Source: Candidatus Omnitrophota bacterium
Lineage (GTDB): Bacteria > Omnitrophota > Omnitrophia > Omnitrophales > Aquincolibacteriaceae
NCBI GenBank assembly: GCA_903884815.1
Contig: CAISGE010000002.1
Span: 45,955 to 109,954 of the forward strand
Direction: 5' to 3'
Length of the DNA stretch: 64,000 bases
A model generated the notes under the pieces. It did not search any database and was not told the origin of the DNA. It worked only from the letters and a program-made list of their open reading frames with translations. This document shows, in pieces, positions 3,652 to 33,834 of this stretch (its first letter is position 1; each line of letters starts with the position of its first letter). The position numbers were made by a program, and so were the translations under genes.

Positions 3652-3683
3652 GAAAAGCGTTCTTTTATCGGCTTTTTGTTTTA

Positions 3684-6620: not shown

Positions 6621-6626
6621 CGCCTC

Positions 6627-6764: not shown

Positions 6765-6843
6765 CGCTGTGTCGACATTGATTTTACGGTTCACCGCGCT
6801 ACCTCGTGGCCCCGTAAAAATCAAACAGACACGGTGGTAAGCG

Positions 6844-9084: not shown

Positions 9085-9095
9085 AATCGCACAAC

Positions 9096-9150
9096 GCGCA
9101 ACGCTCAACGGACAACGAATCGTTGCGCTTTGCGCGCTGCGCGCTGAGCG
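9096..9150 (+). terminator. Cluster of GC-rich hairpins between yidC and mnmG. It is a likely terminator or attenuator and has no clear U-tract.
   Basis: The sequence cgcaacgctcaacggacaacgaatcgttgcgctttgcgcgctgcgcgctgagcgttgaacg contains the palindromes caacgaatcgttg and cgcgctgcgcgc, and caacgctca pairs with tgagcgttg. Confidence 0.35.
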
Positions 9151-9160
9151 TTGAACGAAT

Positions 9161-17991: not shown

Positions 17992-19287
17992 ATGTCGAAA
18001 AGTTTTTGGGCGAAGGGTTTTTCCATTCTTTTAACAATCTTTGTTTTGGCCGGCTGCGGTTCACCGGTTGAAACGGGAGCGAAGGGCGTCACGGAAGTGA
18101 AGGTCAGTTTTTGGGGGACGCCCGAAGAGATTGGCATTATTACCGAAGCCCTCGCGCCATGGCAGACCGCACATCCCGAGATCAAGATCGTTTTCGAGCA
18201 TACGCCTTATACCGGCTACATCAGCAAAGTCCTGACCCGCATCGCGGGAGGCGCGGCCCCCGATATTATCGCCACGGAAGTCGATTATTTCGTGACGTTC
18301 GCGACAAAAGGAGTTTTGGAGGATCTGAACCCATATGTGATCTCGGATCCGGCGGGCTTCGACAAAGCGGATTTCTTCCCGCAAATCGTTGACAGGTTCA
18401 CATATCAGGGAAAATTCCTCGCGGCGCCGCGGGATATCGCGCCGTTTGCCTGCGTCTTCTATAATAAAAAAGTTTTTGATCAGGCGAATCTCCCTTACCC
18501 GACCGATGACTGGAATTGGAGCGACATGTTGCGTCTCGCGCGCGAGCTGACCAAAAAAGACGCTTCCGGTCGCGTGGAGCAATACGGATTTTATACCTGG
18601 GCATGGCAGAACTTTCTTTATGGCAATGGCGGCGGCCTCGTGGATAACGTGCAGAACCCCACAAAGACGATGATGGATGATGACCGCTCCATCATGGGCC
18701 TCCAGTTTTATTCGGATCTGAGCAATCTTTATGAGTCGATGCCGACTCCGACTGCGTTCACGAATTTCGGGATGGGCGCGGACCGGATGTTCGCTAACGG
18801 TCGCATCGCCATGTTCCTCTCGGGGATCTGGGAAACGCCACAGTTCCGCAATTACGATTTTGAATGGGACGTCGTGATGTTTCCTAAGAATGATAAAGGC
18901 GTTCGGGCCTTCGGGACGGGGGGGACCGGATACGCGATACTGAAATCTTCCAAGCATAAGAAAGCGGCGTGGGAAGTGATCAAGGCTCTCACCGGGCCTG
19001 AAGGACAAAGGGAGTTCGCCCGCAGGGGTCTTGCCCAACCCGCGCGCATGTCCGTGGCAAAAAGCGACGCGTTTGCGGATGACAAGTCCGTGCCCCGGAA
19101 CAAGAAAATGTTGAATGAAGCGGTTCAGTATGCCGTGTTTAGCCCCTTCCATCCCAAGTGGCGCGAGATCGAAGAAAAATATATCCGCCCCCAGCTCGAC
19201 CTCGTTTTTAACGGGAAGAAAAGCGCCGCGGAGGTCGCCAAAGAATTGGCCCCCGAGGTGAACGCCCAGCTGAAGCGAGACGAATAA
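17992..19287 (+). CDS. ABC transporter sugar-binding lipoprotein (family 1 extracellular solute-binding protein).
   Basis: A signal peptide with lipobox LAGC|GS precedes a roughly 400 aa periplasmic binding-protein fold with a typical sugar-SBP composition (WGTPEEIG..., FYNKKVFDQANLPYPTDDWNWSDM). No permease genes are adjacent. Confidence 0.7.
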   Translation: MSKSFWAKGFSILLTIFVLAGCGSPVETGAKGVTEVKVSFWGTPEEIGIITEALAPWQTAHPEIKIVFEHTPYTGYISKVLTRIAGGAAPDIIATEVDYFVTFATKGVLEDLNPYVISDPAGFDKADFFPQIVDRFTYQGKFLAAPRDIAPFACVFYNKKVFDQANLPYPTDDWNWSDMLRLARELTKKDASGRVEQYGFYTWAWQNFLYGNGGGLVDNVQNPTKTMMDDDRSIMGLQFYSDLSNLYESMPTPTAFTNFGMGADRMFANGRIAMFLSGIWETPQFRNYDFEWDVVMFPKNDKGVRAFGTGGTGYAILKSSKHKKAAWEVIKALTGPEGQREFARRGLAQPARMSVAKSDAFADDKSVPRNKKMLNEAVQYAVFSPFHPKWREIEEKYIRPQLDLVFNGKKSAAEVAKELAPEVNAQLKRDE

Positions 19288-19328
19288 ACGATCTCTTTTT
19301 TAAAATTATACAAGGAGCTCCCGCACCC

Positions 19329-21785
19329 ATGCCGAGAAAATCAAAGACCCGAAAAAAAGCCGAAGCCAAAATGTTGCAGCAGGAAGATCATTCCGGGAAA
19401 AAGTTCGCCTCAAAATACGGTTACTTCACGCCGGACGGCCGCGAATACGTGATCACCCGCCCGGACACCCCGCGCCCGTGGGTGAACGTAATTTCGAACG
19501 GGGACTACGGCACGATCGAATCGCAGGCAGGTTCCGGATTCTCTTGGCGTGACAATTCCAATCTTTCGCGCGTGACGCGTTGGGATCAGGATCTTATCCG
19601 AGATAACTGGGGCAAATATATTTATGTGCGTGACCGAGACAATGGGGACTATTGGTCGGGGACCTGGAAGCCGTGCATGCCGAAATACGATTTTTTTGAA
19701 GTGCGCCATGGGCAGGGCTACTCGGTTCTGACCAGCAAGCTGAACGGAATTCGTCTCGAGAAAACCATCTTTGTGGATGTCGAAGATCCTGTCGAGGTCT
19801 GGAAGATCGTGCTCACAAACCAATCCGGGAAAAAACGCCGGATGAGCCTCTTTACTTATTTTGACTGGTGTCTCGGTAATTGGTCGGACACACACCGTGA
19901 ATTCCACAAAACTTTTATCGAAACCTGGATCGACAAAAAATTCGGTTGCATTCACGGTGTCAAGCGCGCGCCGCTCGTGCCGGGCTTTATCTCGACAGGC
20001 ATGACGGAAAAACCGCTACAGGGTTTTCACGCAGCCTATCCCAAGCCGGTAGCGTACGACGGAGACAAGGAATCTTTTCTCGGACGCTACGGCGAGATCC
20101 ACGCGCCGGCGGCAGTGGTGGAGGGAAAATGCCGCGGGTCGGAAGGAAAGTGGGGCGATGCCTCCGCGAGCCTTCAAGTCGATGTGGACCTGGAAGCCAA
20201 GGAATCGAAAACCGTGATCTTTACACTCGGCTCCACGCGCACGCGCGAAGAGGCTGAACGCATCATTCAGAAATATGCGAATCCCCGGACTGCAGACCAG
20301 GAGCTTAACAAGGTCAAGGCGCTCTGGGATTCGTTTGTCCACGCTTCCGAGGTTGAGACGCCGGACGAGGCGCTTAATTTCATGACGAATATCTGGATGA
20401 AATATCAGGCTATTTCCGCCCGAATCTGGGCAAAATGCGCGTATTACCAGTCAAGCGGCGGGTACGGCTTCCGCGACCAGTTGCAGGACTGCCAGATCTT
20501 TTTTGCGACGCGTCCGGAGCTCGCGAGAAAGCAGATCCTCCTTCACGCCGAACAGCAGTTTCCCGACGGGACGGTGTACCACTGGTGGCATCACGGCACG
20601 AATATCGGAGCGATCACGCATTGCTCCGACGACCTGCTGTGGCTGGACTTTATCACGTTGAATTATCTGGACGAAACGGCGGATGACGCGATCCTGGACA
20701 CGGTGGTGAAATTCCTCCCTGATCCGAAGACCAAAGAGATCACTTCCGGAACGCTTTATGATCATTTGCTCCGGGCGATCGACAAGGCATTCACGCGGTT
20801 TTCGCCGCGCGGGTTGCCTTTGATCGGCGAATGCGACTGGAACGACGGGCTTAGTCACGTCGGGACAAAGTGGAAAGGCGAATCAATCTGGCTCGGACAT
20901 TTCCTCTACGGGATCCTGAACCGCATCGCGCCGATCATGGAAACGCGCGGGGACAAGGCAAAGGCGGCCGAGTATCTCCGCCGCGCGGAATCGCTGAAAA
21001 GGTCGCTCAACAAGGAGGGCTGGGACGGGGAGTGGTATCTTGGGGCAACGCGCGATGACGGGCGGCCGCTCGGCAGCAAACAATGCGAGACCGGAAAGAT
21101 ATTCCTGAATTGCCAGACGTGGGCCGTGATCACCGGTGTTGCTGACGCGAAGCGCGCTCGGGTTGCGATGGATTCTGCCGCAAAATGGCTTTACAAAAAA
21201 TATGGGCCACTGCTTTTGACGCCGGGGTATAACCAGACCGACGCCACGATCGGCTACATCACGCGTTACGCGCCCTCGGTCCGCGAGAACGGCGGGCTTT
21301 ACACGCATGCTGGCACCTGGGCGGTTCAGGCCGAAGCGATGATGCGTGACGGAGAAAAAGCACATCAGGTTTATGATAGCTTCAATCCCGCGACGCGGGG
21401 TCTTGAGCCGGATATTTATTACAGCGAGCCTTACGTGACTCCGGGGAATGTGGACGGGCCAGATTCGCCCAACAACGGACGCGGAGGCTGGACTTGGTAC
21501 ACGGGTTCTGCCGCGTGGTATGCCGTGGTTGCGATGAATTGGATGCTAGGGATACGCCCGGTTGCCAAAGGACTTGCCGTCGATCCCGTGATCCCGAAGA
21601 AGTGGCCGGGTTTCAAAATGAAGCGGCTTTTCCGCGGCAGCACGTATTTGATCGAGGTCAAAAATCCCGCTCAGACAGGGCAAGGTGTCCAGTCGCTCCT
21701 GGTTGACGGGAAAAAGCAGAAAGAAAATCTCATTCCGGATTTTCGGGATGGGCGGACGCACCGGGTCGAAGTCACGCTCGGGTAA
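19329..21785 (+). CDS. GH94 glycoside phosphorylase (cellobiose, cellodextrin or beta-1,2-oligoglucan phosphorylase family).
   Basis: The N-terminus is YGYFTPDGREYVITRPDTPRPWVNVISNGDYGTIESQAGSGFSWRDNSNLSRVTRWDQD, and the protein spans about 800 aa, the typical GH94 length. The true start is probably the ATG near 19371 (MLQQEDHS...). Confidence 0.75.
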   Translation: MPRKSKTRKKAEAKMLQQEDHSGKKFASKYGYFTPDGREYVITRPDTPRPWVNVISNGDYGTIESQAGSGFSWRDNSNLSRVTRWDQDLIRDNWGKYIYVRDRDNGDYWSGTWKPCMPKYDFFEVRHGQGYSVLTSKLNGIRLEKTIFVDVEDPVEVWKIVLTNQSGKKRRMSLFTYFDWCLGNWSDTHREFHKTFIETWIDKKFGCIHGVKRAPLVPGFISTGMTEKPLQGFHAAYPKPVAYDGDKESFLGRYGEIHAPAAVVEGKCRGSEGKWGDASASLQVDVDLEAKESKTVIFTLGSTRTREEAERIIQKYANPRTADQELNKVKALWDSFVHASEVETPDEALNFMTNIWMKYQAISARIWAKCAYYQSSGGYGFRDQLQDCQIFFATRPELARKQILLHAEQQFPDGTVYHWWHHGTNIGAITHCSDDLLWLDFITLNYLDETADDAILDTVVKFLPDPKTKEITSGTLYDHLLRAIDKAFTRFSPRGLPLIGECDWNDGLSHVGTKWKGESIWLGHFLYGILNRIAPIMETRGDKAKAAEYLRRAESLKRSLNKEGWDGEWYLGATRDDGRPLGSKQCETGKIFLNCQTWAVITGVADAKRARVAMDSAAKWLYKKYGPLLLTPGYNQTDATIGYITRYAPSVRENGGLYTHAGTWAVQAEAMMRDGEKAHQVYDSFNPATRGLEPDIYYSEPYVTPGNVDGPDSPNNGRGGWTWYTGSAAWYAVVAMNWMLGIRPVAKGLAVDPVIPKKWPGFKMKRLFRGSTYLIEVKNPAQTGQGVQSLLVDGKKQKENLIPDFRDGRTHRVEVTLG

Positions 21786-21796
21786 TCGGACAGCGC

Positions 21797-23893
21797 ATGA
21801 AATTCCCCAGAGAGCGCTTTTCAGGTTTTCTAAACAGCCGGAGGAGTGCTCTTTGTTTTTTTGCTGCGGCGCTTTTTATCGCCGCGGTTCTTCCGGCACA
21901 GAGTTTTGCCGCACCCGAAAAAAAGAGCAAGCCCTCCGGGATCATCGTGCAACAGATCGGTCCTGCCGGTGAAGAAGCCCCCCTCGATATCGGGAGCATC
22001 TACAAGAGCGTCCCCCCGGATAAGCCCCTTCAGTTCTCGACGCGGTTCAGGGTGGTCGATGATTTCTCGACCAAGGAACTCAAAAATCGCCTCGGGGGCA
22101 GTTGGTCCGTGGAGACGGGCAAAGAGAAAAGGGTCACGCTCGAATTCAAAAAAGATGACGCCCGGGGCACGCGTTCAGGGGCGTCCCTTTGGGCGCGCTA
22201 CAACCTTAAGAGCAAAGAAACCGCCGTATTCGAGACCTCGCTTGATAAACTCGACATGAGTGCCGCGCAATATCTGGCAATCCAATGCCAGACGCAATCC
22301 CTGGCCGCTTCGAAGGGGCGCTTCCGGGTGTCGCTTACGGATTGGGCCGGAAAGACCGTGGAGCGCGACATCACAGATGCCTGTAGCGCCAAGGAGGGCT
22401 GGAATGAAGAGATCCTCCCGCTTTCTGTTTTCCGGGGAGTGGATCTCAATCAACTGAACACGCTCTCTTTTAATTTTGTCGCGCGCGGAAAGAATGCAGC
22501 GGGAAAAGTGGGAGTAGATGAGATCGCCTTCTTCGGGCCGCCGGAAGTCGGTTTCGAGAGCGTTCTGGACAACATGAAGGGGTTCCCCCTTGAGACGCTT
22601 GATGAATCCCGACGCAAGGAACTGCTCGGGACGGCAAACGACAAGGAGCTTCTTCTCAAGATTGCGAAAGATACGTGGCGATATTTCGAGGACGCGGCGG
22701 ATAAAAAGAATAATCTGGTGATCGACCACATCAAGACCGGGGATTTTCCTCTGGCGGCCGCCTACACCTCTCCCACGAATATCGCTCTGGACCTGATGGG
22801 GGCCGTGGCCGCGCGCGAACTGGGATTTCTCTCTCCCGAGGCGGCTACTCAGCACGTCGAAAAGGTAATGGCCACACTAAAAAAAATGAAGACCTGGAAG
22901 GGATTCTTTTTAAATTTTTATGAAACGTATCAGCTTGGCGTCAGCCGGTCTTTCGCCTCGAGCGTGGATAACGGATGGATTGCCATTGCGCTCGTGGTAG
23001 TCCGGCAAGCTTTTCCAGGAGAGATCGCGCGTGATGCGACCGCGATTCTGGACAAAATGGATTTCGAGGATTTTCTGGATCCCGACAGCAATCATCTTGC
23101 GATCGGCTATGATCTGGAGAGGCAGGGGCCGACCCCGTACCACTATGGCATGCTCGTGACAGAAGCTCGCGCCATGAGCCTTTTGGCGATCGGGAAAGGG
23201 GATCTCTCCGAGGCACACTGGTGGTCGCTTTATCGCGTGGGGCCGGAGTCCTGGGACTGGCAATCGCAGAAACCTCAGGGAAAAAAGATCGAGCGCGGTA
23301 GCGTCAGTTATTTTCAGGGTTATTACAAGGACGGGAAGCAGAAGTTTGTGCCGAGCTGGGGAGGTTCTTTCTTTGAGTTTCTGATGCCGACCCTGGTGAT
23401 CAATGAGAAAAAATTCGCTCCCAAAGGTTTAGGGATGAACGACAAGATCGTGACCGAGCTCCAGCGGGACTACGCGCTCACGGAGAAAAAGTATCCTGTC
23501 TGGGGGATCTCGCCCTCGTCGACGGCGGATGGGCGCCGGTGGCAATACGGTGAATACGGCGTTAAAAAGCTGGGGGTGAAGGGCTACCCGGACCGCGGAG
23601 TGATCACGCCTCACGCAAGCTTTCTGGCGCTTGAGACGCTCCCCAAGGACGCGATCAAGAATATCCGCAAGCTTCTCACGTATAAAATGTACGGGGAATA
23701 CGGTTTTTATGACACCGTCACTTTTCCGAGCGAGAGAGTGAATACTCAATATCTGGCGCTGGATCAGGGCATGGAGCTTATTCCGATCGCGAATTATCTG
23801 AAAAACGGTGTGATCCAGGAATATTTCCATAAAGATCCGTACGGAAAGAAGGCGCAGAAACTTTTGGAGCAGGAAGACTTCTTCAAAAACTGA
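21797..23893 (+). CDS. Secreted glucoamylase-like (six-hairpin) glycoside-hydrolase-family protein. It may be a beta-glucanase acting upstream of the GH94 phosphorylase.
   Basis: It has a signal peptide (FFAAALFIAAVLPAQSFAAPEKK) and is 698 aa. The C-terminal region (WGISPSSTADGRRWQYGEYGVKKLGVKGYPDRGVITPHASFLALE..YGFYDTV) resembles DUF3131/glucoamylase-like domains. The functional call is an inference. Confidence 0.35.
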   Translation: MKFPRERFSGFLNSRRSALCFFAAALFIAAVLPAQSFAAPEKKSKPSGIIVQQIGPAGEEAPLDIGSIYKSVPPDKPLQFSTRFRVVDDFSTKELKNRLGGSWSVETGKEKRVTLEFKKDDARGTRSGASLWARYNLKSKETAVFETSLDKLDMSAAQYLAIQCQTQSLAASKGRFRVSLTDWAGKTVERDITDACSAKEGWNEEILPLSVFRGVDLNQLNTLSFNFVARGKNAAGKVGVDEIAFFGPPEVGFESVLDNMKGFPLETLDESRRKELLGTANDKELLLKIAKDTWRYFEDAADKKNNLVIDHIKTGDFPLAAAYTSPTNIALDLMGAVAARELGFLSPEAATQHVEKVMATLKKMKTWKGFFLNFYETYQLGVSRSFASSVDNGWIAIALVVVRQAFPGEIARDATAILDKMDFEDFLDPDSNHLAIGYDLERQGPTPYHYGMLVTEARAMSLLAIGKGDLSEAHWWSLYRVGPESWDWQSQKPQGKKIERGSVSYFQGYYKDGKQKFVPSWGGSFFEFLMPTLVINEKKFAPKGLGMNDKIVTELQRDYALTEKKYPVWGISPSSTADGRRWQYGEYGVKKLGVKGYPDRGVITPHASFLALETLPKDAIKNIRKLLTYKMYGEYGFYDTVTFPSERVNTQYLALDQGMELIPIANYLKNGVIQEYFHKDPYGKKAQKLLEQEDFFKN

Positions 23894-24049
23894 GCGCCAC
23901 AAGCGTTTGTGAGAGAAGGGTTTAGGTCTTTGCGTAAGACGGATGGCGGGAAAGTCTTAGGGCAGTCCCAAATTAACTCTTTGAAAAAGCATATCGTGGA
24001 GTTAAAATGAGCGCCGCATGTGGCACTTATATAGCTATGAAATAACAGG

Positions 24050-25303
24050 TTGCGAAAAGAACAAAATTCGAAAGGAGAGGCTCTCATGATCATCAAACAA
24101 ATGCTCAAAGACAGGACGCTGACGGACAAGGAGAGAAAAAATCTCGCCATTCTCGAAGTAGTCCGCAAGAATGGCCCCATCTCCCGCACCGATATTTCCA
24201 AACTCACCGAGCTGAACATCGTCACTGTCTCCAATTATGTGAGCCATTACATCAAAAAAGGCCTCATGATCGAGGGAGAACTGGATGAATCGACGGGCGG
24301 CCGCAAGCCGGTGCTCGTGGAGCTCAACCCCAAGGCGGGCTACATTGTCGGCGTGGGCCTCAACATGATGAGCATGGTCGCGGTCTTAGTGGACCTTGAG
24401 ATCAATGTCATTAGCGAGATCAAGCGCGAGCGGGCTCCGGAAAATTCCGAAACCGTCATCCTCCAGATGGTGGATCTTGCTGCTGAGATCATTGAAAAAG
24501 CCGAGATCGATAAGTCCAAGATCGTCGGCCTCGGGGTCGGTATCCCCGGCATCATCGATGAACGCGGGCGGACGATCCGCTGGCCGCAAAGCCTGGGCGA
24601 CAAGGATATCTCGGTCTGCTCCTCTATTAAGGACACCTTTGAAAAGCGACTCAATATTCCCACGATCGTGGAGAATGACGCGAACGCGGCGGTGCTCGGA
24701 GAGAAATGGCTCGGCCTTGATCGCGATGTACGGAACATGGTGTATATGTTTTCGGGCGTCGGCTGCGGCATTTTAATCAATGAGGAGATCTACCGGGGAG
24801 CGAACGGCGCCGCGGGAGAGCTCGGGATTACGAGCACGCACGCCAGCAAAGACTATTCGTTTAAGATCGCGACGCAACTCGGCCGCTGGGAAATGGATAT
24901 CGGCATGGTCCGTCACGCCAAGGAACGCATCGAAAAAGGGGAGCCTTCGCTCCTCAAAGATCTCGTGAAGGGCGACCTTTCGAAGATCACGTTCCGGGAG
25001 ATCGTCAAGGCCATCAAGGAAAAAGACGCGGTCGCGCTCAAGGTGGCAGATCAAGCCGGGCAAGATCTCGGCAAAAAGATCGCCTTCATCGTGAACCTTC
25101 TCAACCCGGAAGTGGTCGTGATCGGCGGCGGCATTGAGGATTGCGGCGCGGTGCTCCTGGATTCGATCAAGAACACCATCAAGGAATGGTCCGTGGAAGA
25201 AGCCGCGACGCAGGTCAAGATCATTCCGTCCGCTTTCGGCGAAAATGCCGTGGCGCTCGGCGTGGTCGGCATTGTGGCCCGCGAAATCTTCGCGCAGGCT
25301 TAA
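24050..25303 (+). CDS. ROK-family transcriptional regulator (NagC/XylR-like).
   Basis: An N-terminal wHTH (LAILEVVRKNGPISRTDISKLTELNIVTVSNYVSHYIKKGLM) is followed by a ROK sugar-kinase-like fold (GVGLNMMSMVAVLVDL..., IVENDANAAVLGEKWLG, ELGITS). The start is likely the ATG near 24086. Confidence 0.75.
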   Translation: MRKEQNSKGEALMIIKQMLKDRTLTDKERKNLAILEVVRKNGPISRTDISKLTELNIVTVSNYVSHYIKKGLMIEGELDESTGGRKPVLVELNPKAGYIVGVGLNMMSMVAVLVDLEINVISEIKRERAPENSETVILQMVDLAAEIIEKAEIDKSKIVGLGVGIPGIIDERGRTIRWPQSLGDKDISVCSSIKDTFEKRLNIPTIVENDANAAVLGEKWLGLDRDVRNMVYMFSGVGCGILINEEIYRGANGAAGELGITSTHASKDYSFKIATQLGRWEMDIGMVRHAKERIEKGEPSLLKDLVKGDLSKITFREIVKAIKEKDAVALKVADQAGQDLGKKIAFIVNLLNPEVVVIGGGIEDCGAVLLDSIKNTIKEWSVEEAATQVKIIPSAFGENAVALGVVGIVAREIFAQA

Positions 25304-25315
25304 AGCCGTTTCTTT

Positions 25316-26377
25316 TTGACGCCACCGATGAAAGCCTTCATTCAGGAGCTTAAGTCCCGGGTTCTCTCGGGCGGGGCCATCACTCAAGAAGAAGCCCTTC
25401 GTCTCGTTTCGATAGAGGACGTTTCCACCCGCGAGATTTTGGCCGAAGCCGCGCACGCGCTCACCGAAAAATTCTGTCCCTCCAAACCCGATCTCTGTTC
25501 TCTTGTGAATGCCAAAAGCTATCTTTGTTCCGAAGACTGCGGCTTTTGTTCCCAGTCTTCACATTACAAGACCGGCGTGAAGCGTTACCCGCTGATGCGG
25601 CCCGAAGAGGTGCTGGTACAGGCTCAAACGGCTGAGGCGAACGGGGTGCAAAGTTTTTGTGTGGTGACAAGCGGCGAGACCTTGAATGACGCGGAATTCG
25701 AACAAGTTCTCGCGACCTTCCGGCTTTTGACCGAGAAAACCGGACTTCGGCTTGACGGCTCGCTTGGGAATCTTACGGCGGAACAGGTCCGGAAATTACA
25801 GGAAGCTGGCATGCGTCGCTTTAACCACAATCTCCAGTGCTCGCGCGAGTTTTATCCCGAAATCGTGTCCACCCATACCTACGACGAGCGAATGGAGACT
25901 TTAAAGTTCCTGGAGCAGAACGGAGTGGAAGTTTGTTCCGGCGGCATTTTCGGCATGGGGGAAACGCGGGAGGACAGGATCCGTCTCGCCTTCGAGCTTA
26001 AACCTTATGACCTGCACTGCCTTCCCATTAATATCCTGAACCCGCGGCCGGGAACGCCGTTGGAAAGCCGTCTTCCGATCGATCCGGCGGAGATCCTCAA
26101 GACCGTCGCGATCTACCGCTTCATTCATCCGAGAGCGAATATCAAGCTCGCCGGCGGCCGGGAGCTCAATCTCGGCGTTTATTTTCAGGAAAAAGCCTTG
26201 CGCGGCGGTGCGAACGGTTTTGTGGTCGGCGGGTATCTCACCACCACCGGCAACCCTCTTGGCGAGGATTTCGACATGCTTCGGCGCGCGGGTTTTTCAG
26301 TGGAAGCGGGCCGCGAGCAAAGCTGCTGCTGTGAGACGCAGGCGGGATGCTCCTCCGGTTGCGGACAAAAAAGTTAA
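25316..26377 (+). CDS. bioB: Biotin synthase.
   Basis: It carries the radical-SAM motif CSEDCGFCSQS and the BioB-specific FNHNLQCSREFYPEIVSTHTYDERMETL with a C-terminal [2Fe-2S] region. The likely start is the ATG at 25328. Confidence 0.9.
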   Translation: MTPPMKAFIQELKSRVLSGGAITQEEALRLVSIEDVSTREILAEAAHALTEKFCPSKPDLCSLVNAKSYLCSEDCGFCSQSSHYKTGVKRYPLMRPEEVLVQAQTAEANGVQSFCVVTSGETLNDAEFEQVLATFRLLTEKTGLRLDGSLGNLTAEQVRKLQEAGMRRFNHNLQCSREFYPEIVSTHTYDERMETLKFLEQNGVEVCSGGIFGMGETREDRIRLAFELKPYDLHCLPINILNPRPGTPLESRLPIDPAEILKTVAIYRFIHPRANIKLAGGRELNLGVYFQEKALRGGANGFVVGGYLTTTGNPLGEDFDMLRRAGFSVEAGREQSCCCETQAGCSSGCGQKS

Positions 26378-26389
26378 ACCAGCCTTGGA

Positions 26390-27113
26390 AATGCTCCTTA
26401 AAGATAAAACGATCCTTATCACCGGCGGAACAAGCACCCTCGGGCAAGCCTTTGTCCGGAAAGCGTCCACCGCAGGAGCCCGCGTTTTTTTTACTTATTT
26501 CAACTCTTCCGTCGTGGCCCGCGAACTTGAATCCTGCGGGGCAATGGGCCTTCCTCTGGATCTCGCTGACATGCGGGCGATCGATGCTTTTGTTGCGGAG
26601 TTCACAAAAAAAGCAGGGGGGCTCGACATCCTGATCCATAATGCCGCCGCGTTCGCGAATGCGCTCATCGAGCAAATGACCGAAAAGCAGTGGGACGATG
26701 TTCTTCGGGTCAACCTCAAGGCGCCTTTTTATCTGACGCGAAAACTTCTGCCCCTTCTCATGCAGAAAAAGCCGAGTAAGGTTTTTATGATGATCAGCCG
26801 TACGGGTTTAAGCGGGCTTGCCGGCGCCGCCAATTACGCGGCCTCCAAAGGGGGGCTGATCGCGATGACCAAGTCGTTAGCCAAAGAGCTGGGGCGGAAG
26901 AAGATCCTGGTGAATGGCGTGAATCCAGGGTTTATGGAGTCCGGCATGACCCGGAGCCTTTCCGAAAAAACGCTTCAGATAAATCTCGAAGAAAGCCCCC
27001 TCAAAAGTTACTCGGACCCTGAAGAAGTCGCTGATTTTCTCGTCTACCTTGCTTCTGACCAGATGCGGCAAGTCACGGGGCAAGTGTTTCATTTTGAATC
27101 CCGGCCTTTCTAA
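26390..27113 (+). CDS. SDR-family 3-oxoacyl-ACP reductase-like protein (FabG-like), embedded in the biotin cluster.
   Basis: It has a Rossmann fold (ILITGGTSTLGQAF) and a catalytic NYAASKGG region. The start is an ATG at 26390 (MLLKDKTIL...). The track ORF start at 26208 lies inside bioB. Confidence 0.7.
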
Positions 27114-27158
27114 GGTAGAATTTTCTCCTACTTCACACCGGAAGGAGTTCCCCAGAAC

Positions 27159-28364
27159 ATGAAACGACGCGTCGTAGTGACGGGCATGGGCGTGCTTTCT
27201 CCGATCGGCAATACGCTTGCCGAATTCCGCGAGAATCTCAAGGTGGGCGTCTGCGGTAAAGACAGCAAAGACTATATGACCGCAGGAGGCTACAGGTTCC
27301 CGCCGGTGTTTCCCCTCAAGGACTTCAGCCCGCGTCCTTACAACACGCAGCTACACGATCCTTTTATACAATATGCCGTCGCTGCTGCGGAGCAAGCCGT
27401 CGCTGACGCGCATTTCGATCTCAAAGCGGTTGATCCATACACGATCGCCCTCTCTGTGAGCTCCAGCAAAGGCGGCGTCCACAGCCTTGGCCGTTTCAAA
27501 GAGCGATTTCTCCGTAGTCCGAGCGCGATGCTGGGGGCGCGGATGTACACGAGCGCGGTCCCCAATTTCGCCGACCAGTGGATCGCCCGGCGCATGAAGA
27601 TCCAGGGGCCGGCCAAATGTTATGTCGCGGCTTGCGCAACTGGCACCGTGGCGATCACCCAGGGGTTTCGCATGGTCTCGGAAGGTCAGGCCGAATATTG
27701 TCTCGCGGGGGCGACCGACGCTTCGATCACGCCGCTGATGCTCGGAGGCTACGACAGTATGAAGGCGCTGGCAAAGCACGATATTCGTCCGTTCGACAAG
27801 CGGCGCGACGGCTTTCTGGTTGGCGAGGGGGCGGGCGTGGTCTTTCTCGAGACCCTTGAGAGCGCTAAGGCGCGCGGCGCCCGGATCTACGGCGAGATCA
27901 TCGAAGCAGCTAACGGACAGGACAGCAAACATCCCATTCAGTTCGATCTTGAGGAACACGCACTGTCGTACACTTTGAATGTCCTTTTGAAGCGCGCCGG
28001 GATCACGGCGCGGGAGATCGACTACATCAATCTGCATGGCACTGGAACGCGGCATGGTGATCTTTATGAAACGTTGGAGCTTAAAGAGGCGTTCGGAAGC
28101 GCGGCCTATAAGATCCCGATGAGCTCCACCAAAGGCGCGACGGGGCATATGCTCGGGGCGACCGGCGCGATTGAGATCATCGCGACGATTCTCGGGATCG
28201 ACGAAGGCTTTGTGCCACCGACACTGGGACTGGAAGAAAATGATCCTGAGTGCGATCTCGATTACACGCCGCTTAAGATGCGTCCACACAAAATTACGAA
28301 TGCGATCAAACTCTCCATGGGGTTTGGCGGAAATGTCGCTGCTATTCTATTGCGCAAGGTATGA
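27159..28364 (+). CDS. Beta-ketoacyl-ACP synthase I/II-like enzyme (FabF/FabB family), embedded in the biotin cluster.
   Basis: The thiolase-fold KAS has the active-site Cys (AACATGTVAI) and two catalytic His residues (HGTGTRHGD, GHMLGATGA). It begins VVVTGMGVLSPIGN and is 401 aa. Confidence 0.8.
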   Translation: MKRRVVVTGMGVLSPIGNTLAEFRENLKVGVCGKDSKDYMTAGGYRFPPVFPLKDFSPRPYNTQLHDPFIQYAVAAAEQAVADAHFDLKAVDPYTIALSVSSSKGGVHSLGRFKERFLRSPSAMLGARMYTSAVPNFADQWIARRMKIQGPAKCYVAACATGTVAITQGFRMVSEGQAEYCLAGATDASITPLMLGGYDSMKALAKHDIRPFDKRRDGFLVGEGAGVVFLETLESAKARGARIYGEIIEAANGQDSKHPIQFDLEEHALSYTLNVLLKRAGITAREIDYINLHGTGTRHGDLYETLELKEAFGSAAYKIPMSSTKGATGHMLGATGAIEIIATILGIDEGFVPPTLGLEENDPECDLDYTPLKMRPHKITNAIKLSMGFGGNVAAILLRKV

Positions 28365-29503
28365 AAAACAACTATCGCCAGGAACTCGAAGAGCTGAAAC
28401 AAAAAAACCTCTACCGTCGTCTCCGCGTCCTTGAGGGAAATGAAGGAACACGGGCCGTTTTCGAGGGCCGGAAGATCCTCCTTTTCTGTGGCAATGATTA
28501 CCTGGGACTCAGCCGTCACCCGCGAGTGATGGTCGCCGCGCACCAGGCGATCGATCGCTACGGCGTGGGTGCGCGTTCAGCCAGGCTGATCGCCGGGACC
28601 ACCGAGGCGCACGCTTCCCTGGAAAAAAAGATCGCGGAGTTCAAAAACAAGGAAGCCGCGCTCGTTTTTGGCTCCGGCTTTCTCGCAAATCTCGGGATCC
28701 TGACCGCTTTCGCGGACAAAGATGATGTCGTGGTCATGGACAAGCTGTGCCACGCGTCGCTGATTGACGGGGCGAGACTTTCCGGGGCGGAGCTCCGCGT
28801 CTTTCCGCACAAGAATTATGAGAAATGTGAAGAGATCCTAAAAAAATGTACGGCCCCCCGGAAGCTTCTTGTGACGGAGAATGTTTTCGGCATGGACGGA
28901 GACCGGGCAGATCTTCCGGCGCTGATACGTCTCAAGAAAAAATACGGCGCGCTCCTCATTGTGGATGACGCGCATGGCACCGGGATCTTTAAAAAAACCA
29001 GCCCCGGTTCGACGGCGCATTTCTCCAAGGGCATCGATGTGATCATGGGAACGCTTTCCAAGGCCATTGGCGGACTCGGGGGGTTTGTGGCGGCGGACCA
29101 GGAACTGATCGATCATCTGGTCAATTTCGCGAGGCCTTTCATTTTCGCGACAGCCCTGCCGCCTGTCCTTTGCAAAGCCGCGCGCGAGGCTTTTTGTGTG
29201 ATCGAAGAGGAGCCGGGGCTTCTCAAGAAGCTATGGACGAATATTCGCGAAGTTCATCAGGGGCTCACGAAGCTTGGTTTCTCTCTCGCTAAGCCCGAGT
29301 CCGCGATACTGCCCGTGATCCTGGGCGACGAGGGGAAGGCCATGGCTGCCTTTGAAAAGCTTCTCGCTCACGGACTCTTTATTCCCGCAGTCCGCTATCC
29401 GACCGTGCCCAAAGGCAAAGCGCGCCTCCGCATTACCGTCTCCGCCGCTCATACGGCCCAGGACATTCAAACGCTTCTCAAGGCATTCAAGGCCCTGGCA
29501 TGA
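28361..29503 (+). CDS. bioF: 8-amino-7-oxononanoate synthase.
   Basis: This PLP-dependent acyl-CoA/ACP:amino-acid C-acyltransferase has a PLP Lys region (GTLSKAIGGLGGFVAAD) and an N-terminus LFCGNDYLGLSRHP. Its start overlaps the KAS stop (ATGA). Confidence 0.85.
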   Translation: MKNNYRQELEELKQKNLYRRLRVLEGNEGTRAVFEGRKILLFCGNDYLGLSRHPRVMVAAHQAIDRYGVGARSARLIAGTTEAHASLEKKIAEFKNKEAALVFGSGFLANLGILTAFADKDDVVVMDKLCHASLIDGARLSGAELRVFPHKNYEKCEEILKKCTAPRKLLVTENVFGMDGDRADLPALIRLKKKYGALLIVDDAHGTGIFKKTSPGSTAHFSKGIDVIMGTLSKAIGGLGGFVAADQELIDHLVNFARPFIFATALPPVLCKAAREAFCVIEEEPGLLKKLWTNIREVHQGLTKLGFSLAKPESAILPVILGDEGKAMAAFEKLLAHGLFIPAVRYPTVPKGKARLRITVSAAHTAQDIQTLLKAFKALA

Positions 29504-29597
29504 AAACGGCCCCGGACGCCCCATTGAAAGTGAAGGATTAGGAGGTATTTGTGAAACTGGAGAAAGAAGCGAGAGCGCAGAAAAGGGGATTGTGGAA

Positions 29598-30080
29598 ATG
29601 AAAAAGTGTCCGATGTGCGCGGAAAAAATTCAAGACGAAGCGATTTTGTGCCGCTTCTGCGGAAAATCGACGGATCCGACTCGCCCCAAGATGGGCGCTC
29701 AGAAATGGTTGTGGGCTTTAGCCCTGCTGCTCTTAGCAACCTCGGGCCTTTATATAATTGGCTTGCAACAGTCAACTTCGGCAAAATCGCGAAATGTTTC
29801 GAACGAAGCAAAGGGGCGCCCCTCTCCGCGAGCGTACTCGACGGAGAATACCTCGGGCTACAGTGTGTTTAGCGTGGACCGTAAGTTTAATTTTGTGGTG
29901 GCTAAAATCGGGCTACAGGATGGGATCAAGAAAGGGGACTTGTTGAAAGTCTTCAAGGGTGGCAAAGAGATTGCCACGATCAAGGTCGAAAAACTTTATG
30001 ATGCATTCTCCGCTAGCGGGATTCTCAGGGAGGACTTGTCGCAACGCATAGAGGAAGGTGATGAAGTACGAAAGCTGTAA
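29598..30080 (+). CDS. Zinc-ribbon membrane protein (160 aa).
   Basis: The protein begins MKKCPMCAEKIQDEAILCRFCGK (a CxxC...CxxC ribbon), followed by one transmembrane segment and a C-terminal soluble domain. The start is the ATG at 29598. The track ORF 29352 overlaps bioF. Confidence 0.5.
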   Translation: MKKCPMCAEKIQDEAILCRFCGKSTDPTRPKMGAQKWLWALALLLLATSGLYIIGLQQSTSAKSRNVSNEAKGRPSPRAYSTENTSGYSVFSVDRKFNFVVAKIGLQDGIKKGDLLKVFKGGKEIATIKVEKLYDAFSASGILREDLSQRIEEGDEVRKL

Positions 30081-30404
30081 ATGGAAAGGATTGAACGGAT
30101 GAGTCATGAAACGAAGAACCTTAAGGTGCTGCTTCTCGTGGCTGCGCTGATGATGTGCGTTGCGGTGATTCCGAATCTGCCGCAGGTTTTCTTCACGCTC
30201 CTGCGATGGGTCGTTTGCGGCGCGGCGGCCTACGCGGCTTATAGGCTAAGGCTGAATCCGAAACTTAGCCGTCACTTCGTCCCGCTCGTAATCGTGGCAG
30301 CGCTCTTTAATCCCTTGGTGCCGGCGCCTCTGACGCTGCTCCTCTGGCTCCTGCTCGATCTCGCTGGCGCCGTTTATTTCCTGCAGCTATCCAAGAAACT
30401 TTAA
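30081..30404 (+). CDS. Small hydrophobic membrane protein (107 aa).
   Basis: It has three predicted transmembrane segments. Its stop overlaps the zinc-ribbon gene. Its function is unknown. Confidence 0.4.
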   Translation: MERIERMSHETKNLKVLLLVAALMMCVAVIPNLPQVFFTLLRWVVCGAAAYAAYRLRLNPKLSRHFVPLVIVAALFNPLVPAPLTLLLWLLLDLAGAVYFLQLSKKL

Positions 30405-30411
30405 TGCTCGG

Positions 30412-31563
30412 TCAGACGGTTCTGCGAAGGATAGGGATTCGCTGGATCAGGAGCACTGCGAGGAGCGATAGAAAGTAAACAGTCGACGCAACGAAGGGGA
30501 TGATAAAAGCCGGATGCCAGATGTTCGACCGGAGGGTGAAACCCCAACGCCCGTGATTCAGAACGTCGATGAACGTGGGGTGTATCAAATAGATCCCGAA
30601 ACTTGCTCCCGCCACCAGGCCCGTCATGCGGCGCCACCTACCGGTTACCTTTTTCCCCATCATTGGGGAGGCCTGCTTCAGCAAGATGAAAAAAGCGGCG
30701 GCGAAAAATAAGTGGTTGGGCGCCATGTTGTCATAGAAAATCGTCGAGAAGGAGTGGATGCGGGCGCAAGCCCAGGCCGTTCCGAAGAAACACACGAGAA
30801 GGCTGAGCCCCCATACAAGCCAGGCCGTCGGAACAGTCTTTTCTGAAGCGTATTTCCGGAGAAAATAGCCCAACACGAAATATCCGACGAAGCCTTGCAC
30901 CGGTTCGATCACCAGCTTGATATGGAACGGGTGGCCGACGAGCCCCGCCAGGCTTTCCACAAACGGTAGAAGGAAGCTGACCAAGAAACAAAGCCCGAGA
31001 AAATAGCCCAGGTCCTTCTTTGAGGCGTTTGCGACAAGGACGCGTAGCCACGGGGTGATCAGATAAAGTCCGATTAGCACATACATGAACCAGAGATGGA
31101 AATACACACGGTCGGTCGCAAAGCGCCTGAGCATTTCCGCAGGGCCGAGGGTGGGTTCATAAAAATGACGCCGCCACAGGAGATAAAAAAGGCTCCAGGC
31201 GAGGAAGGGAATAAGTACCCGGCCGAAGCGCTTGCGGAAAAAGGCACGGTAGCTTTCGGCCTGCGGAAGCAGCAGAGCTCCGCTCAACATAATGAAGATT
31301 GCGACGGGGCCTCGGGCGAGGGAATCATAAAAATTAGCCGCCCCCCACCAACTATTTGGAAGCGTACCCCATTCGGTAATGACGTCGGCGGCGACATGGA
31401 TCACGACCACACTCCACATCGCGATCACGCGTGCTACGTCGACCCAAAGAAGGTCCTCTGGCGGCGCCTTTGTTGTTGACGGGTTTGTTTGAGGCATGCC
31501 TCTTTTATCGGCAAGTGATGGAAATAACAAAGCTTTTGGATACGGCGCCTTAGACGGTCCCAA
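30412..31563 (-). CDS. Membrane O-acyltransferase of family 3 (OatA/OafA-like).
   Basis: It has about 10 transmembrane segments and the family-3 N-terminal pattern (VDVARVIAMWSVVVIHVAAD...). It is 383 aa from the track start. The start is more likely the internal ATG at 31495-31497 (MPQTNPST...). Confidence 0.6.
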   Translation of the reverse strand: MGPSKAPYPKALLFPSLADKRGMPQTNPSTTKAPPEDLLWVDVARVIAMWSVVVIHVAADVITEWGTLPNSWWGAANFYDSLARGPVAIFIMLSGALLLPQAESYRAFFRKRFGRVLIPFLAWSLFYLLWRRHFYEPTLGPAEMLRRFATDRVYFHLWFMYVLIGLYLITPWLRVLVANASKKDLGYFLGLCFLVSFLLPFVESLAGLVGHPFHIKLVIEPVQGFVGYFVLGYFLRKYASEKTVPTAWLVWGLSLLVCFFGTAWACARIHSFSTIFYDNMAPNHLFFAAAFFILLKQASPMMGKKVTGRWRRMTGLVAGASFGIYLIHPTFIDVLNHGRWGFTLRSNIWHPAFIIPFVASTVYFLSLLAVLLIQRIPILRRTV

Positions 31564-31576
31564 TCCTTATCATCCC

Positions 31577-31603
31577 GCCGCCACAAAGGCGGGATGGAGC
31601 CGT
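31577..31603. terminator. Hairpin (catcccgcc...ggcgggatg) followed by a T-run. It is a likely terminator or insulator between the acyltransferase and bioA.
   Basis: A perfect 9 bp stem catcccgcc/ggcgggatg flanks a 9 nt loop. ctgcttttttgg lies 13 nt downstream. Confidence 0.4.
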
Positions 31604-31714
31604 CCAAACTGCTTTTTTGGAAAAGAAATAGAAAGTTTGAACGGAGGTTGATTGAAGAATAGCAAGCCGTCTATAATTGACACCCATTAACGCGATAATG
31701 CTAAGGAACAAGGA

Positions 31715-33070
31715 ATGGAAAAGATGAAAACGGATGAGTTGATCGCGAAAGACCGGAAACACATCTGGCACCCGTTTACGCAGATGAAGGATTGGCAGGT
31801 CGATGACTTTCCGGTGATCGAGCGTGGCCAAGGGTGTTATTTGGTCGATACCGAGGGCCGCAGGTATCTCGACGGCGTGTCGTCCCTTTGGTGCAATGTG
31901 TTCGGGCACCGGGTCCCTGAGATCGATAAGGCGATCAAAAAGCAGCTCGGAAAGATCGCGCACACGACATTTCTTGGCCTCACGCATCCCACGTCGATCG
32001 AACTCGCAGGAAAACTGATCCGAGTCGCACCGAAAGGCCTCTCTCGTGTGTTTTATTCAGACTCCGGTTCTGAGGCGATGGAGATCGCGCTCAAGATGGC
32101 TTATCAGTACTGGCAGCAGCGCGGCGAGACGAAAAAGAAAAAGTTCGCAAAACTGACGAACGCTTACCACGGCGACACGATTGGATCGGTAAGTCTCGGA
32201 GGCATCGACCTTTTCCATCAGATCTATAAGCCGCTTCTCTTCGAGACGCTCGCGGTGCCGTCACCTTATCGCTATCGTTGGTCTTCCGGTGACGATCCGG
32301 AGCGAGTCAAAAAAGAATCACTCGAGGCGATGGAGAAAGCGTTGCGTGAGAATGCCGGCGAGCTTGCGGCGTTCGTGATGGAACCCCTCATGCAGGGCGC
32401 CGCCGGGATGATCGATCAGCCGAAGGGATATATTTCCCGTGCCAGAGAGCTGGCACGAAAGTATAATACGCTCCTAATTTTTGATGAAGTAGCGACCGGA
32501 TTCGGGCGGACGGGCAAGATGTTTGCCTCGGAGCATGAAGGTGTGACGCCGGACATTATGGCGGTGGCCAAAGGCATTACGGGAGGTTATCTTCCTCTTG
32601 CCGCAACCCTTGCGACAGAAGAGGTTTACGAGGCGTTTCTGGGGAAATACGAGGATTTCAAGGCTTTCTACCACGGCCACACGTACACGGCGAATCCGCT
32701 GGCGTGCGCGGCTGCGATTGCAACGCTTGATCTTTTTAAGAAGGACCGGACGATCGAAAAGCTTCAGCCGAAGATCCGGATGATGCAAAATCGCCTAAAA
32801 GATTTTTATAAACTCAAGGCGGTCGGTGATATCCGGCAGGTCGGCACCATGATTGGGATCGAGTTGGTCCTGAACAAAGCGACGAAAGAAAGTTTTAGAC
32901 CGCAAGAAAAGATCGGCGTTCGCGTGATCGAGAGCGCTCGTAAAAAAGGCGCGATTCTGCGGCCCTTGGGTCCCGTGATCGTTCTGATGCCGCCGCTTGC
33001 GATGACGGCGCGCGAGTTGGACAAGCTGTTCGATATTACGTATTCATCTATTGAGGAAACAACAGAATGA
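31715..33070 (+). CDS. bioA: Adenosylmethionine-8-amino-7-oxononanoate aminotransferase.
   Basis: The class III aminotransferase has the BioA N-terminus IWHPFTQMKDW and a PLP Lys region (AVAKGITGGYLPLAA). It is 451 aa. Confidence 0.9.
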   Translation: MEKMKTDELIAKDRKHIWHPFTQMKDWQVDDFPVIERGQGCYLVDTEGRRYLDGVSSLWCNVFGHRVPEIDKAIKKQLGKIAHTTFLGLTHPTSIELAGKLIRVAPKGLSRVFYSDSGSEAMEIALKMAYQYWQQRGETKKKKFAKLTNAYHGDTIGSVSLGGIDLFHQIYKPLLFETLAVPSPYRYRWSSGDDPERVKKESLEAMEKALRENAGELAAFVMEPLMQGAAGMIDQPKGYISRARELARKYNTLLIFDEVATGFGRTGKMFASEHEGVTPDIMAVAKGITGGYLPLAATLATEEVYEAFLGKYEDFKAFYHGHTYTANPLACAAAIATLDLFKKDRTIEKLQPKIRMMQNRLKDFYKLKAVGDIRQVGTMIGIELVLNKATKESFRPQEKIGVRVIESARKKGAILRPLGPVIVLMPPLAMTARELDKLFDITYSSIEETTE

Positions 33071-33834
33071 AAGCTGGAATATTCATCACAGGAACGGACA
33101 CGGACGCGGGAAAAACCGTGGTCTCCGCGGGGTTGGCGCTGGTTCTCCGGGATCGCGGAATGAAAGTCGGCGTGATGAAGCCTGTCGCGACCGGCTGCTA
33201 CGGTGCGGATGAGCGGCTGATCTCGCAGGACGCGGCCTTTCTAATGGAAGCCGCGCAAAACGAATACCCGCCGCTGACGAGCCCTTCGCGTTACCGCAAC
33301 CCTCTTTCGCCCAATGTTGCGGCGATGCTCGAGAAAAGAGAAGTCGATGTTCCCGCCATTCTTAAAAGCTACCAGCAACTTCAAAAACATTATGATTTTA
33401 TGATCGTCGAGGGGATCGGCGGCCTGATGGTCCCTCTGAAAAAAGATTATTACGTGGCAAATTTGATCCGCGACATGGGGCTCCCTATTGTCATCGTGAC
33501 TTACGCGGGCCTCGGCGCGATCAATCATACGTTACTCACAGTCGATGCGGCCATGATCCGGGGAATCGAGGTCCGGGGGATCATTTTCAACCGTGTCTCC
33601 GTGACGAATTATTCTCTGGCCGAGCTTACCAATCCGAAAGTTATACACGATCTTTCCGGCGTTCCCGTTCTCGGCAGCCTTCCCGATATCCAGGGTCTTA
33701 ATCTAGAAAACTGCCAGTTTGGAAAACTCAAGGACATCTTTCGGGAACGCATCCAGATCGATAAGATAGTCGGTCCCAACACCTATCAACCGGAGCAAAG
33801 CGGAGGTTGGGGTCGTCCAAGCCACCCTTCATGA
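33067..33834 (+). CDS. bioD: Dethiobiotin synthetase.
   Basis: It begins with a P-loop (IFITGTDTDAGKTVVSAGLA) and has the BioD fold. Its start overlaps the bioA stop (ATGA). Confidence 0.85.
   Translation: MKAGIFITGTDTDAGKTVVSAGLALVLRDRGMKVGVMKPVATGCYGADERLISQDAAFLMEAAQNEYPPLTSPSRYRNPLSPNVAAMLEKREVDVPAILKSYQQLQKHYDFMIVEGIGGLMVPLKKDYYVANLIRDMGLPIVIVTYAGLGAINHTLLTVDAAMIRGIEVRGIIFNRVSVTNYSLAELTNPKVIHDLSGVPVLGSLPDIQGLNLENCQFGKLKDIFRERIQIDKIVGPNTYQPEQSGGWGRPSHPS

Follow-up and report, generated by a model that had tools for sequence, protein, structure and literature searches.

The source of pimelate in bacteria without BioC/BioH, BioW/BioI, BioZ or BioE has been a question since 2004, with only fitness data available for Desulfovibrio. 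The same question is raised by a stretch of 64,000 nucleotides (the window) from Candidatus Omnitrophota bacterium (assembly GCA_903884815.1, contig CAISGE010000002.1, positions 45,955-109,954 of the forward strand), in which genes encoding a FabG-like short-chain dehydrogenase/reductase (SDR) and a FabF-like 3-oxoacyl-acyl carrier protein (ACP) synthase (KAS) are located between bioB and bioF of a biotin operon. The results reported here suggest, with a probability of about 0.6, that the pimeloyl-ACP stage of the Omnitrophota operon is supplied by a dedicated FabF-derived KAS acting with a matched ketoreductase. The cluster narrows the pimelate question to one or two genes and to a residue-level hypothesis centered on a Lys at the position of FabF Ile108. 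The genes and residues on which the argument depends are listed below.

25328-26377, + strand: bioB, biotin synthase, 349 amino acids from ATG 25328; Radical_SAM and BATS domains; an upstream TTG at 25316 is a possible start
26391-27113, + strand: bio-cluster SDR, a FabG-like 3-oxoacyl reductase paralogue, 240 amino acids; Pfam adh_short/KR
27159-28364, + strand: K-type KAS, a FabF-derived condensing enzyme, 401 amino acids; Pfam ketoacyl-synt N and C domains
27465-27470, + strand: codons of Ser103-Lys104 in the KAS, placed by aligning with FabF of B. subtilis and E. coli
27633-27635, + strand: codon of the active-site Cys159 in the KAS
28361-29503, + strand: bioF, 8-amino-7-oxononanoate synthase; its first 4 bp overlap the end of the KAS gene
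31715-33070, + strand: bioA, S-adenosylmethionine:8-amino-7-oxononanoate transaminase
33067-33834, + strand: bioD, dethiobiotin synthase

Gene content of the biotin operon

The open reading frames (ORFs) of the operon are intact and follow the order ROK regulator, bioB, SDR, KAS, bioF, three inserted genes (Zn-ribbon protein, DUF6804 protein and, on the minus strand, an acyltransferase-3 family protein), bioA and bioD. An earlier note on this DNA, made from the sequence alone, had described nine genes between 25316 and 33834, and all nine were found intact in the order given there. The start called for bioB on two public contigs (L001 and L002), ATG 25328, is also the most likely one here, and that of the SDR gene is most likely ATG 26391. 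All four of the genes named for the biotin pathway pass the NCBIfam equivalog cut-offs of their families: bioB (TIGR00433, 365 bits against a cut-off of 225), bioF (TIGR00858, 438 against 426), bioA (TIGR00508, 550 against 405) and bioD (TIGR00347, 168 against 83). Identical copies of the KAS were found on metagenome contigs of 106-185 kb, and the named relatives of the KAS are from Candidatus Omnitrophota. The contig is represented by ENA ERZ27313102 k141_367908 and JGI 3300009502 Ga0114951_10000059.

The genes looked for as a source of pimelate were not found beside those for the later steps. Pfam-annotated gene calls span positions of about 1-57,000 of the window, the last ~9.5 kb of which is the start of one giant ORF, and among these calls none was obtained for bioC, bioH, bioW, bioI, bioZ, ACP (PP-binding domain), FabZ/FabA, P450 or birA. 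Searches of the 64-kb window by tblastn with E. coli AcpP and BioC also returned no match. The absence of any bioC/bioH, bioI, bioW or bioZ from the window that had been noted at the outset was thereby upheld, and the search for an ACP near the cluster was likewise empty.

The KAS is distinct from housekeeping FabF

The best NCBIfam match of the KAS was FabF (TIGR03150) with a score of 357 bits, below the equivalog cut-off of 494 (493.75), and a Planctomycetota member of the same K-type family scored 398 bits. The catalytic residues Cys159, His293, His330 and Lys325 (Lys335 of FabF) and the GFGG gate residue Phe389 (Phe400 of FabF) are intact, in agreement with the Cys-His-His triad read previously, and the corresponding columns are invariant in the family alignment A1 and in a set of 223 members. 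The AlphaFold2 model of the KAS (pLDDT 92.9) superposed on FabF of B. subtilis (0.96), P. aeruginosa and E. coli with template modeling scores of 0.94-0.96, and the best matches in the PDB were all FabF.

The FabF fold and the intact catalytic residues, together with best family matches to FabF and FabG, would be consistent with housekeeping enzymes whose genes lie between bioB and bioF by chance. That explanation is largely refuted, with hardly any probability left to it, by several results. Both proteins score below the equivalog cut-offs. No acpP, fabD or fabH is located nearby, whereas acpP lies within 1 kb in 41 of 79 ordinary FabF loci among the matches listed, these 79 being the generic control drawn from the 80 loci listed from a genome-collection scan with the KAS alignment. 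In a neighbor-joining (NJ) tree comprised of 32 K-type members, 33 ordinary FabFs and the FabF and FabB of E. coli, with no Desulfobacterota bio-cluster KAS included, the bipartition separating the K-type clade was recovered in 200 of 200 bootstraps. Furthermore, Omnitrophota have ordinary fabG-acpP-fabF clusters of their own. Such a canonical cluster, separate from the bio-type KAS, was found on two contigs of Omnitrophota metagenome-assembled genomes (MAGs; L019 and L065), and the FabF encoded there is 36% identical to the KAS of the window and groups among the ordinary FabFs in the NJ tree; identity of the KAS to housekeeping FabF is about 33-39%. The substitution of Lys for the back-gate Ile in every K-type member and the conservation of bio linkage across phyla, both described below, also argue against a chance location. 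Thus, although fold and catalytic residues are common to the two groups, housekeeping FabF is often found beside acpP whereas the K-type KAS has no acpP nearby and falls in a separate clade. The sub-cut-off scores, the separate KAS clade and the low identity to FabF and FabG of Omnitrophota bear out the earlier reading of the KAS and SDR as dedicated bio-cluster paralogues, neither of which clusters with the housekeeping enzymes.

A profile built from the most divergent KAS relatives gave scores of 480-607 bits for most family members and at most 469 bits for generic FabFs; four divergent members (P0380, P0414, P0421 and P0436) scored 453-466 bits, inside the range of generic FabF. An all-against-all search of representatives yielded 13 usable full-length, single-domain relatives (340-450 amino acids), all 13 of which were K-type, the rest being mainly giant multi-ketosynthase polyketide synthases. 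Searching the plasmids of PLSDB by tblastn returned only ordinary fabF with identities of 39% or less. A high-GC relative (P0177) considered as a representative of Desulfovibrio was rejected, its nearest relatives again being Omnitrophota-type proteins.

A Ser-Lys pair at the back gate

The signature of the K-type family is SSSKGG where FabF has GSGIGG, such that Ser103-Lys104 are found in place of FabF Gly107-Ile108. The Ser-Lys pair is present in 223 of 223 single-domain K-type members, while Lys was found in none of the 79 generic FabFs among the matches listed, in which the residue at FabF position 108 is Ile (72), Val (5) or Ala (2). The top PDB sequence matches, FabF of B. subtilis and the I108F mutant of that enzyme, fix the alignment at position 108. 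Tyr198 takes the place of the second gate residue, Phe202 of FabF, both in the window and across the Omnitrophota core of the family, where the helices lining the distal pocket also contain extra basic residues (Arg116, Arg144 and, at the position of FabF Phe132, Arg128). Divergent members retain Ser-Lys but do not always retain the Arg or Tyr residues. The contrast between SSSKGG and GSGIGG offers annotators a one-motif diagnostic for separating the K-type KAS from FabF.

The back gate of E. coli FabF, comprised of I108 and F202, lies at a depth of about C7-C8 of the acyl chain, and the I108F variant mainly elongates C6 to C8, a bias attributed to the tighter gate hindering the loading of longer acids (PMC9006962). 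Glutaryl methyl ester, a natural intermediate in biotin synthesis by E. coli, has a length of about C7 (PMC9006962). As judged from sequence, the side chain of Lys104, starting at the C7-C8 level, could extend to the oxygens of a dicarboxylate of C5 length attached to the catalytic Cys.

The accompanying reductase

The best NCBIfam match of the SDR was FabG (TIGR01830) with 198 bits, below the cut-off of 298 (297.75), and the SDR of a related locus (L086) scored 171 bits. The catalytic residues Ser136, Tyr149 and Lys153 are intact, confirming the Y-x-x-x-K region described earlier and adding the Ser. As had been read in the earlier note, the KAS and the SDR both appear able to catalyze. The SDR is 31-34% identical to the Omnitrophota FabGs of L019 and L065 and about 30-35% identical to housekeeping FabG in general. 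Five full-length bio-linked SDRs contain the sequence ISR, in which Arg follows the catalytic Ser (Arg137 in the window), and end in HFESR, whereas 25 FabGs from fabG-acpP-fabF clusters and E. coli have GSV/I and V(D/N)GGM at these locations. The fold and catalytic residues are common to the SDR and housekeeping FabG, from which the SDR differs by the Arg after the catalytic Ser. The residues of FabG that bind ACP are Arg129 and Arg172. Basic residues are kept by the SDR at both positions, which suggests that its substrate is bound to ACP.

Linkage of the K-type KAS to biotin genes

Eleven distinct K-type loci, comprised of the window and 10 related loci, were compared. They are listed with the identity of each KAS to that of the window and the order of genes.

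Window (identical to L001/L002), KAS 100%: bioB-SDR-KAS-bioF-[three genes]-bioA-bioD
L086, KAS 66%: ROK-bioB-SDR-KAS-bioF-nitroreductase-[OEP/MFP/MacB pump]-bioA-bioD-RnfC
L006, KAS 61%: bioB-SDR-KAS-bioF-GGDEF-bioA-bioD
L087, KAS 57%: bioB-SDR-KAS-bioF-GGDEF-bioA-bioD
L004, KAS 47%: KAS-bioF
L091/L092, KAS 44%: SDR-KAS-bioF-bioA
L090, KAS 43%: SDR-KAS-bioF
L005, KAS 43%: bioB-KAS
L088, KAS 42%: bioF-like gene 5.5 kb from KAS
L093 (Planctomycetota MAG GCA_040755855.1), KAS 38%: bioB-KAS-bioF
L094, KAS 37%: no bio gene near KAS

The KAS gene is directly adjoined by bioB, bioF or both in 9 of the 11 loci, down to an identity of 38%, and the bio-linked loci derive from Omnitrophota, one Planctomycetota MAG and metagenome contigs. 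An SDR gene is present in six of the 11. Relatives that lack the SDR, such as L005 and L093, indicate that the KAS alone is the conserved core.

The linkage also bears on the explanation that the KAS and SDR make some other short acyl product, such as octanoyl-ACP for lipoate or a lipid or polyketide precursor, with co-regulation the only basis for the location among bio genes. A closed back gate, as in I108F, biases FabF to C8, and the mitochondrial ketosynthase that makes C8 for lipoate has Met at position 108 (PMC9006962); moreover, the KAS of L094 has no bio gene nearby. However, the KAS gene is positioned between bioB and bioF in ORFs that often overlap or nearly abut, as in the 4 bp overlap of KAS and bioF in the window, no lipA/lipB or polyketide synthase genes are linked, and the invariant residue is a Lys, which carries a charge, and not one that is bulky and hydrophobic. 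An alternative product is consequently considered very improbable.

A masked run of N in L006 (about 9090-9200), a GTDB representative contig, interrupts bioB, which seemed to be missing and was recognized after translating the flanks. Genes for sodium:solute symporters adjoin two of the divergent KAS genes, at L093:7240-9024 directly upstream of bioB and at L094:11886-13619. The symporter was set aside as a conserved partner of the KAS, the two copies being 23% identical, and a role in taking up biotin or a precursor would be conjectural.

Proposed route to pimeloyl-ACP

With the full Cys-His-His/Lys/Phe machinery, the K-type KAS would be expected to catalyze a decarboxylative condensation with malonyl-ACP. 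Its acyl pocket would be closed at the FabF back gate by Ser-Lys, joined by Tyr in the Omnitrophota core, and these Lys, Ser and Tyr residues may bind a short dicarboxylic acyl group, carried on Cys159, through its free omega-carboxylate. The primer that fits best by length is glutaryl, with malonyl possible in an earlier round. The product would be 3-oxopimeloyl-ACP, and perhaps also 3-oxoglutaryl-ACP, formed without the methyl-ester disguise provided by BioC and BioH. The SDR, with an Arg beside the catalytic Ser and an Arg-containing C-terminus, would then reduce the 3-oxo-dicarboxylyl-ACP, while AcpP, a dehydratase (FabZ) and an enoyl reductase are predicted to be borrowed from general fatty acid synthesis of type II (FAS II). 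BioF, BioA, BioD and BioB would complete the pathway to biotin.

A more specific proposal, to which slightly less than an even chance is assigned, is that the K-type KAS evolved from FabF independently of BioZ, as a counterpart in which the back gate serves as a carboxylate anchor and which would be sufficient alone to commit a free-carboxylate primer to pimeloyl-ACP. If true, a further and as yet unnamed route to the biotin precursor operates in Omnitrophota, some Planctomycetota and other uncultured anaerobes. The K-type KAS might also underlie the Desulfovibrio route as its mechanistic core.

A number of points weigh against a dedicated KAS and ketoreductase as the supply of pimeloyl-ACP. 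The window shows no evident source of a glutaryl thioester. The primers of FabF-type enzymes are normally acyl-ACPs, which would call for a means of making a dicarboxylyl-ACP. The carboxylate of a C3 malonyl primer would lie well short of residue 104, so two rounds are harder to explain than one condensation of glutaryl with malonyl. The placement of Lys104 relative to Cys159 derives from the alignment to FabF and published FabF structures. Two of the 11 loci depart from the pattern of linkage, that of L088 being weakly linked to bio genes and that of L094 unlinked. That the genome analyzed here also contains a housekeeping fab cluster is presumed from other Omnitrophota MAGs. The ISR and HFESR motifs, suggestive of a signature for bio-linked SDRs, are drawn from no more than five sequences. 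Finally, the specificity of BioZ was mapped mainly to a loop and less to charged residues (PMC12625853), and a charged residue is therefore no proof of specificity.

Comparison with known pimelate routes

A new route to pimeloyl was predicted by Rodionov et al. in 2004 from Desulfovibrio bio operons containing homologues of ACP, KAS, ketoreductase and dehydratase (PMC545781). By transposon sequencing with random barcodes (RB-TnSeq), Trotter et al. in 2023 showed that DVU2558-DVU2565 and the nitroreductase DVU1220 are needed when biotin is absent, and reported similar clusters only in Desulfobacterota and Desulfurispirillum with the biochemistry still to be defined (PMC10102598). The statement in the earlier note that the Desulfovibrio route had not been resolved biochemically thus continues to hold, with genetic support now provided by RB-TnSeq. 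The extended operon of Desulfovibrio resembles that of the window in having a FabF-like KAS and a FabG-like reductase among bioB, bioF, bioA and bioD in an anaerobe, in having no visible bioC, bioH or bioW, and in the elongation proposed without methyl esters. The two differ in that the Desulfovibrio cluster has a dedicated ACP (DVU2562) and two FabZ-like proteins (DVU2560 and DORF42491) and needs a nitroreductase-like protein, whereas the Omnitrophota cluster has just the KAS and SDR, or the KAS alone in some relatives, with a nitroreductase solely in L086. The suggestion that the window encodes a Desulfovibrio-type private route resembling fatty acid synthesis was consequently sustained for the classes of KAS and reductase found in the bio cluster but not for an ACP, FabZ-like dehydratases and nitroreductase of its own, which are absent from the window.

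A full Desulfovibrio-type pathway would have the KAS and SDR as orthologues of DVU2563 and DVU2561, with the ACP, FabZ-like dehydratases and nitroreductase-like reductase encoded outside the window. The identical two enzyme classes within a bio cluster (PMC545781, PMC10102598) are in accord with this explanation, and the nitroreductase gene directly after bioF in L086 (L086:12384-13040) echoes the requirement in D. vulgaris. That gene is ambiguous as a bridge to Desulfovibrio because its product has an N-terminus like a signal peptide and a best match that is SagB-like; it is also located beside the inserted OEP/MFP/MacB pump in a variable slot of the operon. Further, no ACP, FabZ/FabA-like or MaoC-like genes were found within about 10 kb of the KAS in the 11 loci, and tblastn with E. 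coli AcpP gave no match in the 10 related loci. Of the roughly 360 relatives listed, none bears a Desulfobacterota name, and no such cluster is present among the genome-collection matches listed. A complete Desulfovibrio-type pathway is thus considered unlikely.

The other comparison of importance is with BioZ, a single dedicated KAS that condenses glutaryl-coenzyme A (CoA) with malonyl-ACP, with FAS II completing the chain, and in which two Ser residues hydrogen-bond the free carboxylate of the glutaryl group (PMC8024396, PMC12625853, PMC12915131). As proposed here for the K-type KAS, BioZ is a dedicated condensing enzyme of a bio operon that uses a free-carboxylate primer, with polar residues contacting its omega-carboxylate, and delivers 3-oxopimeloyl-ACP to FAS II. 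BioZ is a FabH-like KAS III of alpha-proteobacterial bio operons with a Cys-His-Asn triad and a CoA primer, whereas the K-type KAS has the KAS I/II fold with Cys-His-His, would represent an independent recruitment, and is often accompanied by a dedicated reductase. An argument from charge neutralization by Ser84, Arg147 and Ser287 of BioZ was set aside as a loose analogy only, the R147A variant being still active and the residues being conserved in FabH. The cluster of the window is either a scaled-down version of the Desulfovibrio system or an analogue of BioZ that arose independently from FabF, and the KAS core without SDR looks to resemble BioZ at least as much as the Desulfovibrio system.

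The route of E. coli shares with that proposed here the end product pimeloyl-ACP and two-carbon condensations with malonyl-ACP. There, a methyltransferase and an esterase mask the carboxylate for ordinary FabB and FabF; neither gene is present in the cluster of the window, and the K-type KAS, unlike FabB and FabF of E. coli, appears to be itself adapted to the carboxylate charge. A methyl-ester route of the BioC/BioH type with distant or unrecognized genes, the KAS and SDR being isozymes tuned to methyl esters, was also considered. The absence of bioC and bioH, and that of bioW, covers the window and the flanks of the related K-type loci rather than the whole genome, and the role of BioH is filled by many unrelated esterases (BioG/K/J/V; PMC12915131). 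Nonetheless, neither a methyltransferase nor an alpha/beta-hydrolase is present in the 11 loci, ordinary FabB and FabF handle the methyl esters in E. coli (PMC9006962), and a neutral methyl ester would call for the reverse of a buried Lys with additional Arg residues. This explanation is accordingly judged improbable.

The pimelate routes listed as established in recent literature are BioC-BioH, BioI-BioW, BioZ and BioE (PMC12915131). In the literature consulted, no mention was found of a FabF-like gene in bio clusters of Omnitrophota or Planctomycetota, or of a Lys at FabF position 108. In surveys of Omnitrophota, biotin synthesis is rated as partial or as less than universal; a pimeloyl-ACP stage supplied by the dedicated KAS and ketoreductase would correct genome-based calls of an incomplete pathway in Omnitrophota, and also points towards the engineering of KAS enzymes for dicarboxylic substrates.

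The bioF-bioA slot and the surroundings of the operon

The remaining features of the operon and its flanks are as follows.

24050-25303, + strand: ROK regulator
About 29604-30080, + strand: Zn-ribbon/single-transmembrane protein; weak Zn_Ribbon_1 match
30081-30404, + strand: DUF6804 small membrane protein; PF20619, 48.6 bits
30412-31563, - strand: acyltransferase-3 family membrane protein; PF01757, 114 bits
33905-36044, + strand: RnfC/RnfD, after bioD

The junction between bioF and bioA is a variable slot, occupied by a GGDEF gene in L006 and L087 and by the nitroreductase and tripartite efflux pump in L086. None of the three genes inserted in the window recurs in the related loci, the slot of the Zn-ribbon gene having been checked in L006, L086 and L087, which indicates that the three are unrelated cargo and not parts of the pathway. 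The three-gene insertion ahead of bioA-bioD recognized in the earlier note was thus substantiated, and it probably splits the operon into units of bioB-SDR-KAS-bioF and bioA-bioD.

The gap between the ROK gene and bioB in the window is 24 bp from ATG 25328 or 12 bp from TTG 25316, and not 10 bp as first reported. With just 12-24 bp between ROK and bioB in the window and L086, the bio genes may be transcribed by readthrough from an operon for sugar utilization. In both loci (window 17992-25303 and L086:817-8091), the genes ahead of bioB encode a sugar-binding protein, a glycoside hydrolase family 94 (GH94) phosphorylase, a glycoamylase-like protein and the ROK regulator. A scan for promoters and terminators gave counts at the level of chance, with only the positions upstream of ROK and bioA suggestive; the promoter-like site at 31648-31677, upstream of bioA, belongs to a class found at chance frequency in this region. 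A search for the BirA operator (TTGTAAACC-N14-17-GGTTTACAA, with up to 5 mismatches) returned nothing near the cluster.

In BioB of the window (25328-26377), and in that of L086 and L087, the second ligand of the auxiliary cluster corresponding to Cys128 of E. coli BioB is not conserved, falling in an Asp/Gly region, while in L005 and L093 a Cys is displaced by one or two positions relative to Cys128. The BioB of the window alone ends in a Cys-rich tail (SCCCETQAGCSSGCGQKS), encoded within 26320-26377.

A gene for RnfC follows bioD in four lineages (window, L006, L086 and L087) with KAS identities of 57%-100%. It is located directly after bioD in the window and after mnmA in L087, and RnfD is seen where the locus extends far enough. 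Synteny of the bioD-Rnf region is thus preserved over long evolutionary distances, despite the changing content of the bioF-bioA slot.

At 798-7200 of the window, gyrB, dciA, dnaN and dnaA on the minus strand face rnpA, yidC, mnmG and parAB on the plus strand, and gyrA is also present. This gyrA/gyrB-dnaN-dnaA-rnpA-yidC-mnmG-parAB neighborhood indicates that the window is located at the chromosomal replication origin. At the other end, a giant ORF on the plus strand extends from about 54553 to the end of the window at 64000, which it runs off, and encodes fn3, cadherin-like and Big_9 repeats. On a public contig the product is at least 4193 amino acids in length, matching the very long proteins reported for Omnitrophota.

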